Below are positions 2,011-12,027 of a stretch of DNA of 13,445 bases, piece after piece. Each line of letters opens with the position of its first letter. Within the stretch, counting starts at the first letter, position 1. Source of the stretch: a virus (lineage: Duplodnaviria; Heunggongvirae; Uroviricota; Caudoviricetes); the IMG/VR virus record IMGVR_UViG_2654587686_000016. The stretch is one strand, 5' to 3'. The notes under the pieces were generated by a model. It worked only from the letters and a program-made list of their open reading frames with translations. It did not search any database and had not been told where the DNA came from. Made by a program: the position numbers and the translations under genes.

Positions 2011-2388
2011 CTAACTATCCAATAGATCAATGCCAACCTCTTTTCCTGCAACATCTCTCATCAGAAGTGACCCAAATTCATCCAATCAGCACAAAAGAAA
2101 CATTTAAAGCGTGAATGCTACCGAACGTTCATTTCAATTACATCGTTTTGATTTTTAACAGTTTTCACCTCAACAAATCAAATGGCATTAGCATTCATCA
2201 TGGAAGAAAGACTGATAAAAATGATCATTTTCAATGACTTATGATCACATCGGGTATTGCCAAGTCATTCCTTTTACGCCAGGATACCCACAAGTGAGTA
2301 GTCGAGGAGAGTTTGCCAATTTTTGCGATATAAATTTCAATGTCCGAAGAACCATTAATTGTTAATTGATTCTGTATAAGGTATTAAC

Positions 2389-3486
2389 ATGACAATTTCA
2401 TATATTCCTATTCTGAAAGCGAAACGTTCTGAGTTATCAGCTTTATCGCAGCTATCCATTGAAAAGAAATCAAAAATTTTGCCATTACTCGAAATTGAAC
2501 CAGTGCCAATTGACCCTGATTCAGGTATTGCCTTAAAGAGTTATAACGAGACTCTTATAGAGTTCGGAAAGAAAGTCTCAAAATCTTGCTCAGATATGCA
2601 AGGTGTTTATATTGATGGATTATTAATTGAAGAGCATTTTATTTCTCCTGAAGATCATTACCCTATAATAAATGCGGTTAATCAAGTTAGAGATATGGAG
2701 ATAAGAGTTATTCCTGTCAGTTCACCAACTCGCCCATCTAACTATAAAAGAGCGATTGATGAATTAATGCAGAATGAAATATGCTTGAGATTAACCACGT
2801 TAGATCTGGTTAACCCACAATTAATAACGCATTACATTAATCATCTGGGAATTCCTTTATCAAATATTGATATAATTATTGACTTAAGAGATGAGTTAAC
2901 CGAGGATAAAATTAATTCCGGCGAACTATATACTTTGGCAATGGGATTGATAAACAATCTGGCGCACCTCAATGAATACAGAAAAGTGATTCTTTCTGGG
3001 GGTTCATTTCCTACAGATCTCAGTGATATTTCTGTTGGTCTATATTCTCAACCTCGAATCGAGTGGATTTTATGGCAGAGTTTAATGAATAGAAAAGAAC
3101 TTGCCAGAAATGTGATTTATAGTGATTATGGAGTACAGCACCCCGACTTTAATAGGCTTTCGACGCGATTCCCTAGCGTATCTGCCAGCGTCAGATACTC
3201 TGGAGATAATGACTTTTGGGTATTTCGAGGAAGAGTAGCTAATCGCTTTGGTTATGAACAATATGGTAAACATAGTGAGGATATTCTTGCTCATCGAGAA
3301 TATTCAGGGCCTACATTCTGTGCGGGAGATAGAGACATAGAATATTATGCAAACGAGTATCAAGCCTACAAAGCCAATCCCTCTGGTAACTATAAATTTG
3401 GTAGCCCAGAGGTATGGCGTAGGATTGGGCAAAACCATCACATAACTAAGGTTGTTGAGCAACTCGCCACTCTTTACGGGCTTTAA
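2389..3486 (+). CDS. Uncharacterised 365-aa protein, gene A of an AT-rich accessory cassette
   Basis: Long uninterrupted ORF at about 33-35% GC (counted on two 60-nt samples), with a weak SD (AAGG) 9 nt upstream. Hydrophilic, with no TM segment and no catalytic motif I can name. Preceded by a ~500-bp AT-rich ORF-free region. Confidence 0.8.
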   Translation: MTISYIPILKAKRSELSALSQLSIEKKSKILPLLEIEPVPIDPDSGIALKSYNETLIEFGKKVSKSCSDMQGVYIDGLLIEEHFISPEDHYPIINAVNQVRDMEIRVIPVSSPTRPSNYKRAIDELMQNEICLRLTTLDLVNPQLITHYINHLGIPLSNIDIIIDLRDELTEDKINSGELYTLAMGLINNLAHLNEYRKVILSGGSFPTDLSDISVGLYSQPRIEWILWQSLMNRKELARNVIYSDYGVQHPDFNRLSTRFPSVSASVRYSGDNDFWVFRGRVANRFGYEQYGKHSEDILAHREYSGPTFCAGDRDIEYYANEYQAYKANPSGNYKFGSPEVWRRIGQNHHITKVVEQLATLYGL

Positions 3487-4024
3487 GTTTAACTCGAACA
3501 GCTTCACGAAGCTCGCCAACATCCATACTATTGGCGAGTTTTGACCATAAGACGCGTTTAGGTTTATTTTTCAAATTCTGTAGCTCCCCTACATCACTTA
3601 ATAGGGAAAGCAATTCATCTTTCCAAAGAAGCATTGTTAAGGAAAGTTTGTCCACTTGTGGATTCAACTTGCTAGTTCGAATTGTTTTTAAATGGATACC
3701 TTGCCGTGCACCTTGCGTAACTTGCTTTATCCCCCACCATGATGGAACTATGCTTAAAGCATCATAAAGATGGCAATCAGAGACAACCAAAGTTACTTTA
3801 TCCATCACTGATGAGTAATGTTGCACCTGCGCTGGTAATCTGAGCAAGTTATCACTCTTGCTCTTCAACTCATAACCATGTATAAGCCCATTGATCACTG
3901 CTATATCAGCTCTGCTAGCCCCTAGATTCATCGTAAACTCATCAATGATTAGGGTGTCAGGATCTTTATGATGATCTCTCAGAATCTTGGCATGCACAGC
4001 CTTTCTTACATCAATGTCTCTCAT
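3446..4024 (-). CDS. Uncharacterised 192-aa protein with a PD-(D/E)xK-like nuclease signature, gene B of the AT-rich cassette
   Basis: ORF convergent with gene A, overlapping it by 41 nt at the 3' ends. Motif E29 ... RA-D40-IAVI ... GY-E52-L-K54 fits the D-x(n)-(D/E)xK pattern of a hydrophobic beta-strand followed by ExK. GC roughly 37-40% on two 60-nt samples. Confidence 0.75.
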   Translation of the reverse strand: MRDIDVRKAVHAKILRDHHKDPDTLIIDEFTMNLGASRADIAVINGLIHGYELKSKSDNLLRLPAQVQHYSSVMDKVTLVVSDCHLYDALSIVPSWWGIKQVTQGARQGIHLKTIRTSKLNPQVDKLSLTMLLWKDELLSLLSDVGELQNLKNKPKRVLWSKLANSMDVGELREAVRVKLKARKEWRVAQQP

Positions 4025-4329
4025 ACCATAGTTGCGCTTTCATCGACTCTCTCAAGCCATGATTCTATATCATGGTTCGCATGAATGCCATTTGATATGA
4101 CCAGTGGTTAAACATTGCACAGAAAAGTGGATGTGTATTTTAACAAAAGCAATGACGGCTAACCATGTTGGTATGTCGATAAAATGTTTCAACGTAAGCA
4201 TTATCTGTTCCGCCCTTTCAGACGGCCTCCTGATGTTCTGAGGGTGCAGAATCCCTCCGGTTAAGGGTTTAATAAAAATCGTTTCTGATTTAAATCTTCA
4301 GTATTTAGTTGTTAGTCGGTTTATAGCCT

Positions 4330-4641: not shown

Positions 4642-4888
4642 TTCTGTTCTCCCACGTTTTCAGACTTTCACCACAGAACGGACAAAATGAAACCCGAACT
4701 GGTAATTTAGAAAATTCACCGGAACGCAACATCACAAAATCAGGACCGCGAGTTAAACTCTCATTCCAGATTTTGTATATCAGCAGACCTTTTCGCATCG
4801 TGTATTCAGCATCATGCTCAAGGGACTTTGCCAGTGCTGCACATGGTTCTATCTTGTTGCCATTAACCTGGCATTTTGATTCACTCAC
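4634..4888 (-). CDS. Hypothetical phage protein (84 aa) with a C-terminal CPFCG zinc-ribbon-like motif
   Basis: ORF with a 4-nt overlap (ATGA on the - strand) with the upstream 140-aa gene; contains Cys pairs C6/C16 and C69/C72. Confidence 0.55.
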   Translation of the reverse strand: MSESKCQVNGNKIEPCAALAKSLEHDAEYTMRKGLLIYKIWNESLTRGPDFVMLRSGEFSKLPVRVSFCPFCGESLKTWENRNE

Positions 4889-5307
4889 CGCACCACCTCC
4901 TCAAAATTCCCCTGATAAAACGCCAGTACGCGCTGCATAACTTCGCTCTTCCGGCACTCGAGACAGATTATGTTCAGACGCCTGTCGTAGCGACGTATTT
5001 CTCCGTCAGGTAATGACCAGATAAGGTCCGGATCAACCGCAGATGGTTTCTTCAGCTTTGCCCTTGAGAGCTTTTTACGGGCATTTTGCCAGTCCTTACG
5101 CGCCTGTTCAGACGGGAATAACCCGTAACCAGAGTTGTATACATCGCCACTGGCAACCAGCTCTCTGGCCAGAACGCTCATCAGATATCTTGTTGCCCCA
5201 GTTTTAGTTTCCAGTTGTCGTAACGTCTCGCGCCCACTCTGGCGTACGAGTTCAACAACCTGCCCTTTAATTTTCTCCTGCTCTTCTTGTGTAAAAACTT
5301 TTGCCAC
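4885..5307 (-). CDS. Hypothetical phage protein (140 aa), possible HTH-containing replication-associated protein
   Basis: ORF immediately downstream of the replication initiator-like gene in the same operon. The N-terminal segment ETLRQLETKTGATRYLMSVLARELV looks helix-turn-helix-like. Confidence 0.55.
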   Translation of the reverse strand: MAKVFTQEEQEKIKGQVVELVRQSGRETLRQLETKTGATRYLMSVLARELVASGDVYNSGYGLFPSEQARKDWQNARKKLSRAKLKKPSAVDPDLIWSLPDGEIRRYDRRLNIICLECRKSEVMQRVLAFYQGNFEEVVR

Positions 5308-5347: not shown

Positions 5348-6325
5348 TTACCCCCTGAAGCCCGGCGGAATTTCAGTGTCCGGTTCAGAAATGTGATTCA
5401 CGCAACGCTGCGCAGGCGAACGCCCCAGGCGGATAACCAGTTCATCCCATTTTTCCCGGAGTTTTGCCGGACTCATGATGTTTTTTACCCAGAACGAATC
5501 CCGCTGGAGACGCCCAAACATTTCACAAATTTGTCTGTGAGTTCTGCCATCCAGCATCCGCATTGTGCGAACGTCATTGGCCCATGCTGTCCAGTTGGGT
5601 TCTTTCGGTCTAGTGATCTCGCCATCATCGCTGGCCGCCTGCTCGTAAAGACTCACGATTCGTCCCCAGATCCACTGTGCGCACACCAAATCTTCCTGAC
5701 TTCCCCACTGGCGTTTTTTCGCACTGAACACAACCGCGTCAGGGTGTCGGGTTAAAAAATCCTGTTCAGCCGTCTGCGGGTCCGGTTGCGAAGCGTCCGG
5801 ACAAGAAGATCTTTTATCTGACGGATCAGGTTTTAATACTGACGGATCGGGGTCAATCATCGCCCCCCTAATCGGCAGTTTTTTATCAACAGTTGATCCA
5901 TCAAAATTTGACGGGTCAACCGTTGAGGGGTCAATATTTGACGGGTCAACTGTTAACGGGTCATTTTTTGCCGGGCTAATTTTTCTTTTTGGTTTATATG
6001 ACTCACGCGCCGCCGCCGCAGCTGCTTCGAGTTTTTCCACATTAAGCCGATAGATATTGCTTACATTACGCCCACCGACCTTACGCTCTTCCTTCGTCAG
6101 CCAGCCCTCTTTCGCCAGTTCTGCAATAGCCGATTTCACTGTGGATTCACTTCTTGCACCGATCTGACGCCGGATAGTTTCAATGGCAGGCCATGACACG
6201 CCCTCGTCATTGCTGTAGTCTGCAAGACGGGCCATAACCGCCACCCTGGATAAGATCATGCCGGTGAAGGCGCACCCTTCCCAGACAAGACCATGAAGCT
6301 TGCTGCTCATAAAACCCCCGAACAC
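5348..6325 (-). CDS. Replication initiator-like protein (lambda O analogue): N-terminal winged-HTH, central 5-aa repeats encoded by the iterons
   Basis: Occupies the position after the cro-like and ydaT-like genes. N-terminus is HTH-like (SRVAVMARLADYSNDEG...TVKSAIAELAKEGWL). The internal repeat DPSNIDPSTVDPSNFDGSTVD corresponds to 15-bp tandem DNA repeats. The ORF starts at a GTG; an ATG at 6310 with a GGGGG SD 5 nt upstream is the more likely start. Confidence 0.75.
   Translation of the reverse strand: MFGGFMSSKLHGLVWEGCAFTGMILSRVAVMARLADYSNDEGVSWPAIETIRRQIGARSESTVKSAIAELAKEGWLTKEERKVGGRNVSNIYRLNVEKLEAAAAAARESYKPKRKISPAKNDPLTVDPSNIDPSTVDPSNFDGSTVDKKLPIRGAMIDPDPSVLKPDPSDKRSSCPDASQPDPQTAEQDFLTRHPDAVVFSAKKRQWGSQEDLVCAQWIWGRIVSLYEQAASDDGEITRPKEPNWTAWANDVRTMRMLDGRTHRQICEMFGRLQRDSFWVKNIMSPAKLREKWDELVIRLGRSPAQRCVNHISEPDTEIPPGFRG
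5820..5965. repeat. Iteron array (candidate phage replication origin) inside the replication initiator gene
   Basis: Four 15-bp tandem repeats start at 5910, 5925, 5940 and 5955 (GACGGGTCAAC / GAGGGGTCAAT / GACGGGTCAAC / AACGGGTCATT), with two degenerate copies at 5820 and 5841. An AT-rich tract follows at 5961-6000 (TCATTTTTTGCCGGGCTAATTTTTCTTTTTGGTTTATATG). Confidence 0.6.
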
Positions 6326-6332
6326 CGTGCTT

Positions 6333-6758
6333 TTAGTGCATCACCACAGCATTCCCTGCCGGGCCGCCGCGATTCATCTGGTCATACAAAACAACCGCTG
6401 ACGCAACAAAATCATCGACATCCTTCACCAGCCGATCCCTCCGTTCGACGATCTCACGGTAATATTCAGAACTGTGGCTGCGCATACGGGCCACCAGCAA
6501 AGGCGGCATCGCCTTTTCGATCGCCGGTAACAGAGCCTGCATTTTTTCAACAGCATCAGGGGTGTCTTTATCCAGCCAACGGAAAATTTTCTGGGTATTA
6601 CGGGCCAGGGCTTCCGGATGGCTGTCGTCGTACAGTTCAGGGAACGTCATCCCCAGTTCGAAATAAGTCCGGGCTATTTCAGCTGCAGGAACTTTCTCAC
6701 CATCAGGGTATGCCCAGGCATTCATCGCCATGCGGATGTGCTCATGTTTGATTTTCAT
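6333..6758 (-). CDS. ydaT: YdaT-like protein (141 aa)
   Basis: Second gene of the operon divergent from the repressor, overlapping the upstream cro-like gene by 17 nt. Length matches K-12 Rac YdaT (about 140 aa, from memory), with SD GAGG upstream. Confidence 0.7.
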   Translation of the reverse strand: MKIKHEHIRMAMNAWAYPDGEKVPAAEIARTYFELGMTFPELYDDSHPEALARNTQKIFRWLDKDTPDAVEKMQALLPAIEKAMPPLLVARMRSHSSEYYREIVERRDRLVKDVDDFVASAVVLYDQMNRGGPAGNAVVMH

Positions 6759-7089: not shown

Positions 7090-7140
7090 ACAATATTAGG
7101 CATAGCCTAATGAAATTGTCAATAGGCTATGCCTAATACA
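7090..7140. promoter_or_regulatory. OR-like control region: two 17-bp palindromic operators overlapping a sigma70-like promoter for the ydaS-like operon
   Basis: Operator ATTAGGCATAGCCTAAT at 7094-7110 is a perfect palindrome (arms ATTAGGC / GCCTAAT); a second copy (reverse complement ATTAGGCATAGCCTATT) is at 7120-7136. On the - strand, TTGACA (7121-7116), an 18-nt spacer and TAATAT (7097-7092) form a promoter pointing at the ydaS-like gene. Confidence 0.65.
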
Positions 7141-9555: not shown

Positions 9556-12027
9556 ATGAGTAAAGTCTTTATTTGCGCCGCCATTCCGGACGAACAGGCA
9601 ATAAAGGAAGAAGGTGCAGTCGCTGTAGCCACTGCCATTGAAGCCGGTGATGAATGTCGCGCCCGCGCAAAATTTCACTGGCAATTCCTGGAACATTATC
9701 CGGCTGCTCAGGACTGCGCTTATAAATTTATTGTCTGCGAGGATAAACCTGGCATACCCCGCCCTGCCCTCGATTCATGGGATGCTGAATATATGCAGGA
9801 AAACCGCTGGGATGAGGAGTCTGCTTCTTTTGTCCCGGTTGAGACTGAATCCTATCCGATGAACGTCACTTTTGACAAGCTGGCCCCTGAAGTACAGAAC
9901 GCTGTCATGGTTAAGTTCGACACATGTGAAAACATCACCGTTGATATGGTTATTAGCGCACAGGAATTGTTGCAGGAAGACATGGCAACATTCGACGGAC
10001 ATATCGTTGAAGCGTTGATGAAAATGCCAGAAGTTAACGCCATGTATCCGGAGCTTAAGTTGCACGCCATTGGGTGGGTTAAGCATAAATGTATTCCTGG
10101 TGCTAAATGGCCCGAAATTCAGGCAGAGATGCGCATCTGGAAAAAACGTCGCGAAGGTGAACGCAAGGAAACCGGAAAATACACGTCTGTTGTTGATCTC
10201 GCCCGCGCCAGAGCCAATCAACAGTACACTGAAAATTCAACAGGAAAAATCAGCCCGGTCATTGCTGCCATTCATCGCGAATACAAGCAGACATGGAAAA
10301 CACTGGATGACGAACTGGCCTACGCTCTCTGGCCTGGTGATGTGGATGCCGGAAACATTGACGGCAGCATCCATCGCTGGGCAAAAAATGAAGTTATCGA
10401 CAACGGCCGCGAAGACTGGAAGCGTATCTCGGCATCAATGCGCAAACAGCCTGATGCCCTTCGCTACGACCGCCAGACTATTTTTGGCCTTGTCCGTGAA
10501 CGTCCGATCGACATTCACAAAGATCCCGTAGCACTGAACAAATATATCTGCGAATACCTGACGACAAAGGGCGTGTTTGAGAATGAAGAAACAGACCTGG
10601 GCACTGTTGATGTTCTCCAGTCATCAGAAACACAAACTGATGCAGTGGAAACTGAGGTATCTGATATCCCAAAAAATGAAACCGCGCCGGAAGCTGAACC
10701 ATCTGTAGAGCGTGAGGGGCCGTTCTACTTCCTCTTCACCGACAAGGATGGCGAAAAATACGGTCGCGCAAACAAACTTTCTGGTCTGGATAAGGCGCTG
10801 TCTGCTGGGGCTACTGAAATCACGAAAGAAGAATATTTCGCCCGCAAAAACGGTACATACTCAGGTTCACAACAAAATACTGGTGCATCTGACACGACCG
10901 CACAACCAGGGTCAGTAAAAGTTACCGCTGACGAAGTAAACAAAATTATGCAGGCAGCCAATATCAGCCAGCCTGACGCCGATGAACTGCTTGCAGTATC
11001 ACGTGGTGAATTTGTTGAAGGGATTAGCGACCCGAATGATCCGAAATGGGTTAAGGGGATCCAGACCCGCGATTCTGTGAACCAGAACCAGCAAGAAACG
11101 GAACAGAACGACCAGAAAGCGGAACAAAACAGCCCAAATACGCAACAAAACGAGCCAGAAACGAAACAACCTGAACCAGTAGTGCAACAGGAACCGGAAA
11201 AGATCTGCACCGCCTGCGGTCAGAGCGGTGGCGGCAACTGCCCTGATTGTGGTGCGGTGATGGGTGACGCAACATACCAGGAAATATTCGATGGAGAGAA
11301 TCAGCCTGAAGTTCAGGAAAATGATCCGGAGGAAATGGAAGGCACTGCGCATCAGCACAAGGAGAACACTGGCGGCAATCAGCATCATGCCAGCGATATT
11401 GAAACTGGCGAGGCGTCAGATCCCTTAATTAAGGCGAACGGTCATCATAATCTCACATCCACCAGCAGAGCGGGGATTCATCTGATGATCGACCTTGAAA
11501 CCATGGGAAAAAATCCCGATGCCCCGATTATCTCAATAGGTGCAATATTTTTCGATCCGCAAACCGGAGATATGGGACCGGAATTTAGTAAGACTATCGA
11601 TCTGGAAACTGCTGGCGGAGTCATTGATCGGGACACCATTAAATGGTGGCTTAAGCAATCACGCGAAGCGCAATCTGCCATTATGACCGATGAAATCCCG
11701 TTAGATGATGCACTGTTACAATTGCGGGAATTTATCGACGAAAACTCCGGTGAATTTTTTGTTCAGGTCTGGGGAAATGGAGCCAACTTCGACAACACGA
11801 TTTTGCGCCGTTCATACGAACGGCAGGGGATCCCCTGCCCGTGGCGTTACTACAACGATCGCGATGTACGCACAATCGTTGAGCTGGGGAAAGCCATAGA
11901 CTTCGATGCCAGAACGGCTATTCCATTCGAAGGTGAGCGCCATAATGCACTTGATGACGCCCGTTACCAGGCAAAATACGTTTCAGTTATCTGGCAAAAA
12001 CTGATCCCGAGTCAGGCTGATTTTTAA
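9556..12027 (+). CDS. Large exonuclease (823 aa) in the RecE position: C-terminal DnaQ-like DEDDh 3'-5' exonuclease domain, central Q/E/N-rich linker and a CxxC...CxxC zinc ribbon
   Basis: Long ORF with GAGG 9 nt upstream. C-terminal motifs MIDLETMG (Exo I, D-x-E), VWGNGANFDNTIL (Exo II) and HNALDDARYQA (Exo III, H-x4-D) are seen directly. Zinc ribbon CTACGQSGGGNCPDCG at nt 11207-11257. The low-complexity linker has a T-poor DNA repeat at about 11090-11200. Confidence 0.8.
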   Translation: MSKVFICAAIPDEQAIKEEGAVAVATAIEAGDECRARAKFHWQFLEHYPAAQDCAYKFIVCEDKPGIPRPALDSWDAEYMQENRWDEESASFVPVETESYPMNVTFDKLAPEVQNAVMVKFDTCENITVDMVISAQELLQEDMATFDGHIVEALMKMPEVNAMYPELKLHAIGWVKHKCIPGAKWPEIQAEMRIWKKRREGERKETGKYTSVVDLARARANQQYTENSTGKISPVIAAIHREYKQTWKTLDDELAYALWPGDVDAGNIDGSIHRWAKNEVIDNGREDWKRISASMRKQPDALRYDRQTIFGLVRERPIDIHKDPVALNKYICEYLTTKGVFENEETDLGTVDVLQSSETQTDAVETEVSDIPKNETAPEAEPSVEREGPFYFLFTDKDGEKYGRANKLSGLDKALSAGATEITKEEYFARKNGTYSGSQQNTGASDTTAQPGSVKVTADEVNKIMQAANISQPDADELLAVSRGEFVEGISDPNDPKWVKGIQTRDSVNQNQQETEQNDQKAEQNSPNTQQNEPETKQPEPVVQQEPEKICTACGQSGGGNCPDCGAVMGDATYQEIFDGENQPEVQENDPEEMEGTAHQHKENTGGNQHHASDIETGEASDPLIKANGHHNLTSTSRAGIHLMIDLETMGKNPDAPIISIGAIFFDPQTGDMGPEFSKTIDLETAGGVIDRDTIKWWLKQSREAQSAIMTDEIPLDDALLQLREFIDENSGEFFVQVWGNGANFDNTILRRSYERQGIPCPWRYYNDRDVRTIVELGKAIDFDARTAIPFEGERHNALDDARYQAKYVSVIWQKLIPSQADF

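Follow-up and report, generated by a model that had tools for sequence, protein, structure and literature searches.

The DNA analyzed here is a stretch of 13,445 nt from IMG/VR record IMGVR_UViG_2654587686_000016 (Caudoviricetes), in the following called the window. A lambdoid (Rac/Qin-like) prophage of E. coli probably has its replication origin here, in the region around positions 5786-6000; the origin would then be situated in the linker codons of its own initiator gene. A first-pass annotation had regarded a repeat array plus an AT-rich tract inside this gene as a probable phage origin. This proposal gains support at the sequence level from the O-type identity of the gene, from signs of selection on the nucleotides, from the linkage of the sites to the N-terminal domain of the initiator, and from the uniqueness of the site motif in the genome of phage SfIV.

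Iteron sites in the initiator gene

The four repeats of exactly 15 bp that had been noticed at 5910 (GACGGGTCAAC), 5925 (GAGGGGTCAAT), 5940 (GACGGGTCAAC) and 5955 (AACGGGTCATT) are present. Tandem Repeats Finder reported a period of 15 bp with 5.2 copies and a stronger period of 30 bp with 2.5 copies at 5886-5984, and the repeat search gave start-to-start spacings of 15/15/15/15 in the array. Each site shows dyad symmetry. The near-palindromic core TTGAC-GG-GTCAA is found at 5908, 5923, 5938 and 5953, while the fifth array copy at 5893 is a compensated, doubly changed variant, TTGAT-CC-ATCAA; in some relatives the symmetric form TGAA..TTCA occurs. The spacers within the array alternate, which produces the super-period of 30 bp. 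When up to two mismatches were allowed, the 12-mer yielded seven strand hits at five positions, all of them within the array, where 1.26 hits were expected and none of 200 shuffled sequences reached seven; at the same threshold the motif was not found outside the array in the 13.4-kb window. Two outlying copies, CTGACGGATCAGG and CTGACGGATCGGG, are located 21 bp apart at 5818 and 5839. Altogether two to three such outlying sites lie 40-90 bp beyond the array, within a conserved, AT-rich segment that also bears GATC sites, and the coding-strand sequence TTGACCCCGATCCGTCAG of the site at 5839-5856 is kept in relatives from Erwinia, Mixta, Edwardsiella and Morganella.

The first-pass annotation had also stated that the repeats are in frame and encode pentapeptides of the initiator. 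The peptides indeed match, as the coding strand of the array reads ...DPLTV DPSNI DPSTV DPSNF DGSTV D... in frame; the statement needs correction in that the gene (5348-6310) is on the minus strand. Initiator alleles of E. coli with 320, 315, 310 and 305 amino acids differ by whole pentapeptide units, i.e. 15 bp. Because the unit comprises five codons, the number of sites can rise or fall without a frameshift. Some E. coli alleles are also devoid of one PDPSVLK unit of 7 amino acids (21 bp), which corresponds to one outlying site. For the segment 5888-5954 as single-stranded DNA, folding predicts a hairpin that is long but imperfect (-18.4 kcal/mol, z = -4.5, reached by 0 of 200 shuffles) and probably a by-product of the evenly spaced palindromes.

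Selection on the DNA of the linker

Relatives of the initiator gene were collected with the N-terminal domain (amino acids 1-100) alone as bait, which provided 80 loci from various enterobacterial species in addition to six genes, namely the one in the window and those of five phages. The codon and motif tests were done with 84 genes, all of which have distinct linker sequences; the close relatives on viral contigs are all 99-100% identical and hence of no use for the analysis of variation. For the codon test the repeats were defined at the peptide level as [DE]-x-S, thereby avoiding circularity. A position logo anchored on TGA....TCA is circular for these six positions, and the peptide-anchored codon test was relied on instead.

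The motif TGAN4TCA reaches a density of 11.5 per kb in the linker versus 0.43 per kb in the rest of the genes, a 27-fold difference. The serine in the [DE]xS units of the linker is encoded by TCA in 471 of 552 cases (85%), whereas TCA accounts for 18.7% of the other serine codons and for 17% of the serines in [DE]xS elsewhere. The serine preceding D or E is encoded by TCT in 212 of 255 cases (83%). In the N-terminal domain of the same genes, the top codon of conserved residues with fourfold degeneracy has an average share of 0.49, and a conserved serine in the folded part of this domain is encoded by TCA in 7 of 80 genes. The value of 0.49 implies that synonymous sites are largely randomised at this divergence.

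The linker peptide is poorly conserved and reads DPS, DAS, DTS, DGS, EGS, EPS, NPP and so on. At the DNA level, the central 2 bp vary (P, A, T or G at the peptide level) and the TGA and TCA arms are fixed, as expected for a dyad with an uncontacted centre. The site occurs in both orientations, since DPS is encoded by TGAC-CC-CTCA and EGS by TGAG-GG-GTCA, and in some relatives both arms are altered together to TGAA..TTCA. In the phage Stx2_KH16-043 (L088 at about 2457-2485, nt 457-485 of the gene) one copy of the motif, TTTGACCCTTCAGAATCTGAC, is situated in another reading frame and encodes RLTLQNL. Collectively, the enrichment of the motif in the linker, the bias towards TCA, the use of both orientations and the out-of-frame copy argue that selection acts on the DNA; as judged from these comparisons, the sites are under nucleotide-level selection, and constraints on the peptide could hardly account for these features.

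Inheritance of the sites with the N-terminal domain

Among the relatives, the N-terminal domain together with the repeats is joined to at least three types of C-terminal domain. The neighbouring genes vary upstream (YmfL/YmfM, Rha and others) as well as downstream (YfdN, methylase/PAPS reductase, ren-like), leaving the N-terminal domain as the only constant partner of the repeats. The phage mEp460 represents a natural domain swap. The C-terminal half of its O-like gene is 86.6% identical in DNA to the window, including the DnaT-like tail described below, and a ren-like gene follows; its N-terminal half is unrelated and is accompanied at the same position by an array of its own (L084 2714-2820), five copies of ATCGGGTCAAAATG with spacings of 23/23/23/24 bp that are not in frame and are followed by A-rich repeats. 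Because the C-terminal domain is common to both genes and the array differs with the N-terminal half, the array follows the N-terminal domain. The mosaic junction with genes of the mEp460 type is found just past the repeats, at about 5816-5848.

The base before TGA also differs between clades, being T in 14 of 15 units in the sub-clade that resembles the window and C in 257 of 309 units of the larger clade. In the complete 39.8-kb genome of SfIV the clade motif occurs four times, all in the initiator gene, with an expectation of 0.42. Hence, these comparisons show that the N-terminal domain and the repeats are passed on as a unit while the C-terminal domain is swapped. Classically, such co-inheritance has been used to attribute the iterons of lambdoid phages to the N-terminal domain of the O protein.

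AT-rich tracts and host-factor sites

An AT-rich stretch directly beside the repeats was part of the initial proposal. It is real, with a GC content of 0.30 at 5960-5999 and of 0.23 in the 30-bp window at 5976, and among the 30-bp stretches of the initiator gene its part at 5965-5999 has the lowest stability. However, it is specific to this allele and not conserved as an element, because the tract belongs to the least stable 5% of the gene in only 2 of 8 close and 28 of 75 distant relatives and shows a cross-genus nucleotide identity of 0.50-0.53. Its role as a conserved unwinding element was rejected on these grounds. In gene orientation it lies upstream of the array, towards the N-terminal codons, opposite to the situation in lambda.

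The other AT-rich segment, 5797-5842, is the least stable 40-bp window of the initiator gene, although it is interrupted by sites. Among relatives the corresponding segment, coding strand TTGACCCCGATCCGTCAGTATTAAAACCTGATCCGTCAGATAAAAGATCTTCT, belongs to the least stable 5% in 80 of 83 genes with a median rank of 0.1%. In an alignment-based profile the cross-genus nucleotide identity peaks with 0.77-0.87 at 5786-5875, compared with a gene mean of 0.62, though this part encodes a disordered linker. Segment 5797-5842 thus seems the better candidate for an unwinding element than 5965-5999.

GATC sites are located at 5808 and 5824 within this segment, at 5845 just outside of it, and at 5895. These four sites (5808-5898) make up the densest 120 bp of the window, and the GATC within GATCCGTCAG is conserved in relatives, which suggests a possible control by Dam/SeqA. 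The sequence GATCTTTTATCTG at 5808-5820 resembles the 13-mer of oriC, agreeing with 9 of the 11 positions specified in its consensus GATCTnTTnTTTT; this resemblance is regarded as a lead only. Sites for other host factors were considered and rejected. The DnaA-box-like 9-mers TTATCAACA (5883-5891) and TTTTCCACA (6033-6041) flank the array, but five matches compare with 3.5 expected ones, and they are not conserved in the 84 relatives. The spacing TCAA-N3-TTGA does not fit the IHF consensus WATCAANNNNTTR when compared by eye.

Domains of the initiator

The open reading frame (ORF) spans 5348-6325 on the minus strand, and the start codon in RefSeq is the ATG at 6310. The encoded protein matches phrog_391, 'replication initiation O-like', with an E-value of 2e-115. 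The gene is 99.9% identical to one of E. coli O104:H4; the annotation of E. coli genomes describes the protein only as 'helix-turn-helix domain-containing protein'. When 5426 complete E. coli genomes were compared, 3265 had a match to some part of the gene and 1514 a near-full-length copy.

An AlphaFold2 (AF2) model built on 50 homologues predicts an N-terminal domain with the order H-H-H-H-E-E plus a helix at a predicted local distance difference test (pLDDT) score of 70-85. Foldseek found resemblance to winged-helix proteins of the MarR/PadR/ArsR type with E-values of about 5e-3, which is informative at the fold level only. Proteins of this type bind dyad sites as dimers. The Pfam scan of the protein returned HTH_36 alone and no lambda O N-domain model. 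The NCBIfam model TIGR01610 for the lambda O N-terminus recognized lambda O at an E-value of 5e-39 and did not match the protein of the window, and the profile comparison of the two N-terminal domains gave no detectable relationship (hhalign probability 0.1%). There was also no Pfam or NCBIfam match to the double winged-helix of the Rep_3 type known from plasmid iteron Rep proteins; the protein has one winged helix with a generic MarR/PadR fold.

The C-terminal part gives a different picture. Amino acids 182-300 are 39% identical to residues 171-277 of lambda O (BLASTP, E 5e-26), and tblastn matches were obtained in the O genes of lambda, 933W and phi80. With regard to the lambda O family, homology of the C-terminal domain was therefore found, whereas the N-domain model and an adjacent P gene were not. 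The iterons and both AT-rich tracts are all encoded within the predicted disordered linker (amino acids 108-174) between the folded domains, and amino acids 297-320 are likewise predicted to be disordered. From these matches and the model, the initiator can be described as a two-domain protein of the lambda-O type that comprises an HTH_36 N-terminal domain, a disordered linker, a lambda-O-type C-terminal domain and a DnaT-like tail.

DnaT-like tail and lack of a P gene

The tail RCVNHISEPDTEIPPGFRG, which ends with ...SEPDTEIPPGFRG, corresponds to the 21 residues at the very C-terminus of host DnaT, RDVNTVSEPDSQIPPGFRG, and about two-thirds of the residues are identical. The NCBIfam DnaT model is matched only at profile positions 159-179 with 16.8 bits against a cutoff of 201. 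In some records, relatives carry the annotation DnaT (primosomal protein I); this assignment was rejected, because only the last 21 residues match and neither the N-terminal domain nor the three-helix C-terminal domain of DnaT does. A 2026 paper on the preprimosome structure offers no usable information on the last 21 residues of DnaT and does not state what they bind.

The relation between tail and P gene was surveyed in 86 genes, a set in which the 84 relatives had been supplemented with lambda and two other phages. Nine genes, among them that of lambda, have a P-like gene behind them, and all nine possess a lambda-like tail (W..G..L), while a P-like gene follows none of about 51 genes with a tail of the ...GFRG type. 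The DnaT-like tail occurs on two unrelated types of C-terminal domain and with two unrelated N-terminal domains, including the N-half of mEp460. The closest cross-genus relatives from Erwinia, Mixta, Edwardsiella and Morganella share the N-terminal domain and the iterons, but they have a lambda-like tail and a P gene. In the replication module of the window no P-, DnaC- or DnaB-like phage gene was found, and the complete genome of SfIV has no annotated helicase, loader or primase.

The DnaT-like tail may represent the missing link from O-only phages, which carry an O homologue without P, to the host loading machinery. A more specific and tentative idea, which we consider possible though on balance doubtful, is that O-only modules mimic the host restart primosome, with the tail copied from DnaT (...SEPDxxIPPGFRG) docking to PriA/DnaT-dependent or DnaB-DnaC machinery and replacing P. 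In such a scenario, the initiator would assemble on the dense, frame-neutral iteron array before its tail docks the loader at the melted origin, and the hairpin-prone array might serve as a structure resembling a primosome assembly site. The DnaT-like tail together with the missing P gene is a more novel lead than the origin itself.

The probable origin and alternative explanations

If the region acts as origin, dimers of the N-terminal domain would bind the sites and form an O-some-like nucleoprotein complex in which the DNA is distorted, by analogy with lambda. Transcription from the pR-like promoter, which is predicted to run through the initiator gene and the putative origin, would pass through this region. 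The adjacent AT-rich tract would then melt, with 5797-5842 preferred over 5965-5999, and the lambda-O-type C-terminal domain and the DnaT-like tail would bring in the host helicase machinery. A direct recruitment is proposed because the phage genes listed above are absent from the module; without a P gene the delivery of the helicase cannot follow the lambda route.

Several points weigh against this interpretation. In the searchable literature, no experiment was found that demonstrates binding, unwinding or origin activity of a protein or locus from this initiator family. The N-terminal domain differs from that of lambda O, and its binding to the sites is deduced only from co-inheritance and symmetry. 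Sites of 12 bp with centres spaced by 15 bp are packed far tighter than those of lambda with 20-24 bp, making their simultaneous occupancy questionable. Neither AT-rich tract is long, their instability is no more than moderate, and 5965-5999 takes about the tenth place among the non-overlapping 30-bp windows of the 13.4-kb window. Related sequences are non-independent samples, so the codon counts overstate the statistical weight; however, the contrast with N-domain codons of the same genes controls for this non-independence. Finally, a defect of the prophage module is conceivable, given that it has no phage helicase loader, but the viable phages SfIV, mEp460, PhiR49_1 and Eeyore have the same loader-less arrangement.

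It might also be that the sites bind the initiator mainly for autoregulation or copy-number control, by a transcriptional roadblock or by handcuffing, and that replication starts elsewhere. The location of the sites in a transcribed gene, downstream of the sole promoter found, would fit to such a role, and plasmid iterons serve both initiation and control. However, there is no other cluster of the motif in the window or in the whole SfIV genome, the position matches that of ori-lambda in gene O, and a conserved AT-rich element adjoins the sites, which makes a purely regulatory role unlikely. The array could alternatively work as a single-stranded hairpin, comparable to a primosome assembly site for host PriA, or as a recombination hotspot at a module junction. 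The stable predicted fold of 5888-5954 and the DnaT-like end of the initiator would be consistent with the former, the mosaic junction of the mEp460 type just past the repeats with the latter. Yet any series of palindromic sites at even spacing would by itself give rise to such a hairpin, and relatives keep the sites but alter copy number and spacers, by which a specific hairpin would be changed. As a replacement for the origin this explanation is very unlikely, while the hairpin would be compatible with the origin as an added step.

The binding of another protein to the sites, such as the cro-like, the cII-like/YdaT or the ren-like protein, or host DnaA, IHF or SeqA, is highly improbable. The GATC cluster and the weak DnaA-box-like 9-mers at 5883 and 6033 could point in this direction. 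In contrast, relatives with common repeats have differing neighbours, so that the N-terminal domain remains the sole constant partner, and, as mentioned, the DnaA-box matches are at chance level and unconserved and the IHF spacing does not fit. Hardly any weight can be given to the explanation that the repeats are a protein feature only, i.e. a low-complexity linker of D-P-S-x-x pentapeptides from in-frame duplication, because, despite the exact frame, the five-codon unit, the predicted disorder and alleles that differ by whole units of 5 amino acids, as slippage in a coding repeat would give, the codons are fixed beyond what the peptide needs (TCA for 85% versus 19% of the serines, TCT for 83% of the preceding ones) while synonymous sites of the N-terminal domain are randomised, the peptide drifts while the TGA/TCA arms are kept, the site is used in both orientations and in another frame, a dyad is meaningless for a peptide, and the linker contains the most conserved nucleotides of the gene.

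Prophage context and transcription

A prophage with 99.9% identity to the window is present in E. coli O104:H4 and in many other strains. Its genes are arranged in the order repressor (cI-like), cro-like (YdaS), cII-like (YdaT, phrog_163), initiator and ren-like (DUF977, phrog_142), which is the order cI-cro-cII-O-ren of lambda minus P, lambda itself having O-P-ren. The gap between the initiator and the ren-like gene measures 40 bp and has no P gene in it. The pR-like promoter at 7122-7093 was the only promoter found; neither a further promoter nor a terminator was found inside the initiator gene, and no terminator-like site was detected between this promoter and the initiator gene. The literature on oriJ of the Rac prophage was considered and found inapplicable, since Rac of K-12 has the DUF1376 protein YdaU and the DnaC-like YdaV at the same place. 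The positions of the features are compiled in Table 1.

Table 1. Position, strand and supporting evidence of the sequence features in and around the putative origin.
Feature	Position	Strand	Evidence and remarks
Core iteron array	5893-5964		Five 12-bp near-palindromes (TTGACGGGTCAA type), exact 15-bp period
Degenerate sixth copy TTGCCGGGCTAA	5968-5979		9/12 match, same register; read from sequence; inside period-15 array 5907-5984
Outlying site CTGACGGATCGG, overlapping GGGGTCAA half-site	5839-5856		Repeat search
Outlying site CTGACGGATCAG (DPSD codons)	5818-5829		Repeat search; GATCCGTCAG motif conserved family-wide
AT-rich tract 1, T-rich on + strand, encodes ...SYKPKRKISPAKN	5965-5999		GC 0.23-0.30; allele-specific
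Family-conserved AT-rich segment around outlying sites, candidate DNA-unwinding element	5797-5842		Stability and conservation
Replication initiator gene, 320 aa	5348-6310	-	ORF and translation; phrog_391
N-terminal winged-helix domain coding region, aa 1-105	5996-6310	-	Pfam HTH_36 over aa 25-71; AF2 model
Predicted disordered linker coding region, aa 108-174	5789-5989	-	pLDDT 31-41
Lambda-O-type C-terminal domain coding region, aa 178-295	5426-5779	-	BLASTP, tblastn, confident AF2 model
C-terminal tail, aa 300-320, RCVNHISEPDTEIPPGFRG	5351-5413	-	phmmer vs PDB 2ru8, 6aep, 9zbt_D, E 2.5e-4
Ren-like gene directly after initiator, at lambda P position	4885-5307	-	Pfam DUF977; phrog_142 'Ren-like exclusion protein'
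YdaT-family 'CII-like' gene	6333-6758	-	phrog_163
pR-like sigma-70 promoter, upstream of cro-like, cII-like and initiator genes	7093-7122	-	TTGACA-18-TAATAT, 10/12 match

Some further observations were made in other parts of the window. An AT-rich island at about 2100-4300 contains an ORF of 365 amino acids (2389-3486, plus strand), which matches Pfam Beta_protein and the PADLOC model PD-Lambda-2_C (E 1.4e-40), and an adjoining ORF of 192 amino acids (3446-4024, minus strand), which matches the PADLOC model 'cll'. Judged from these matches, both might possibly be cargo for defence against phages. At this place, the prophage of O104:H4 carries QueH and hokD instead. A 21-bp tandem repeat, GAAACAAAACGAGCCAGAAAC, with 4.3 copies is found at 11079-11169 within the gene for a RecE-like exonuclease of 823 amino acids (9556-12027).

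Significance

As far as the sequence tells, the repeats are very probably sites for initiator binding in an origin in the style of lambda. This kind of element is ordinary, but it is found here in combination with a poorly studied initiator family and no phage-encoded helicase loader. No published description of an origin was found for the HTH_36 initiator family. The identification provides a concrete fragment for testing in a class of phages, lambdoid and Stx-related, for which replication is stated to be 'not yet understood' in one study (PMC12315714) or is undescribed in another (PMC8951638). It also offers a clean natural case in which a DNA code is superimposed on a protein code, with the arms fixing third codon positions while the peptide drifts. 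Moreover, the correlation between the tail and the missing P gene makes the helicase loading of O-only phages experimentally approachable and may explain how these phages recruit the helicase, which could matter more than the origin.

Comparison with known replication systems

In plasmid iteron origins, the P1 oriR and oriC, a cluster of initiator sites is likewise accompanied by an AT-rich region in which GATC occurs. Unlike in the plasmid iteron and oriC types, there is no Rep_3/WH1-WH2 initiator in the window, the DnaA boxes are unconserved, and the sites are situated inside the rep gene.

Among phages, HTH_36 proteins are known from the 'Eru' replication regions of Stx phages, i.e. Eru5, 6, 8, 11 and 13 (PMC8951638). 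These regions resemble the window in the adjacent genes for an HTH_36 and a YdaT-like protein, which follow downstream of repressor and cro, and Stx2_KH16-043 carries a related N-terminal domain and array. The Eru proteins are simply called HTH proteins there (PMC8951638), and the papers on Eru regions make no mention of an origin. According to a survey of lambdoid phages (Genome Res 2025), 34 of 314, phage LLS and 33 others, have an O homologue only, and their replication 'is not yet understood' (PMC12315714). The window, SfIV, mEp460, PhiR49_1 and Eeyore share the arrangement of these O-only modules; in the accessible text of the survey iterons, an origin or a DnaT-like tail are not mentioned (PMC12315714).

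The closest comparison is with lambda. When analyzed with the same tools, lambda showed four iterons, then an AT-rich region and then an inverted repeat inside gene O, which agrees with the published layout (PMC7466680). The first-pass annotation had likened the window to this layout. The likeness is borne out for the iterons inside the initiator gene, but the order of AT-rich tract and iterons is reversed, with the gene on the minus strand. The sites of lambda are about 19 bp long, spaced by 20-24 bp and out of frame, whereas those of the window have 12 bp and a strict in-frame period of 15 bp. Unlike lambda, the window has extra outlying sites inside an AT-rich segment, and its allele-specific AT tract is on the opposite side of the array. 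The N-terminal domain is phage_O_Nterm in lambda and HTH_36 in the window, and lambda has P and an O protein ending with ...DWIYGVDL, in contrast to the DnaT-like tail without P. Nevertheless, ori-lambda, like the six-iteron origins of the Stx phages 933W and P27, is also situated in the middle of the initiator gene between the parts for N- and C-terminal domains, and it shares with the window the several dyad-symmetric iterons beside AT-rich DNA, the read-through from pR and a homologous C-terminal domain (39%).

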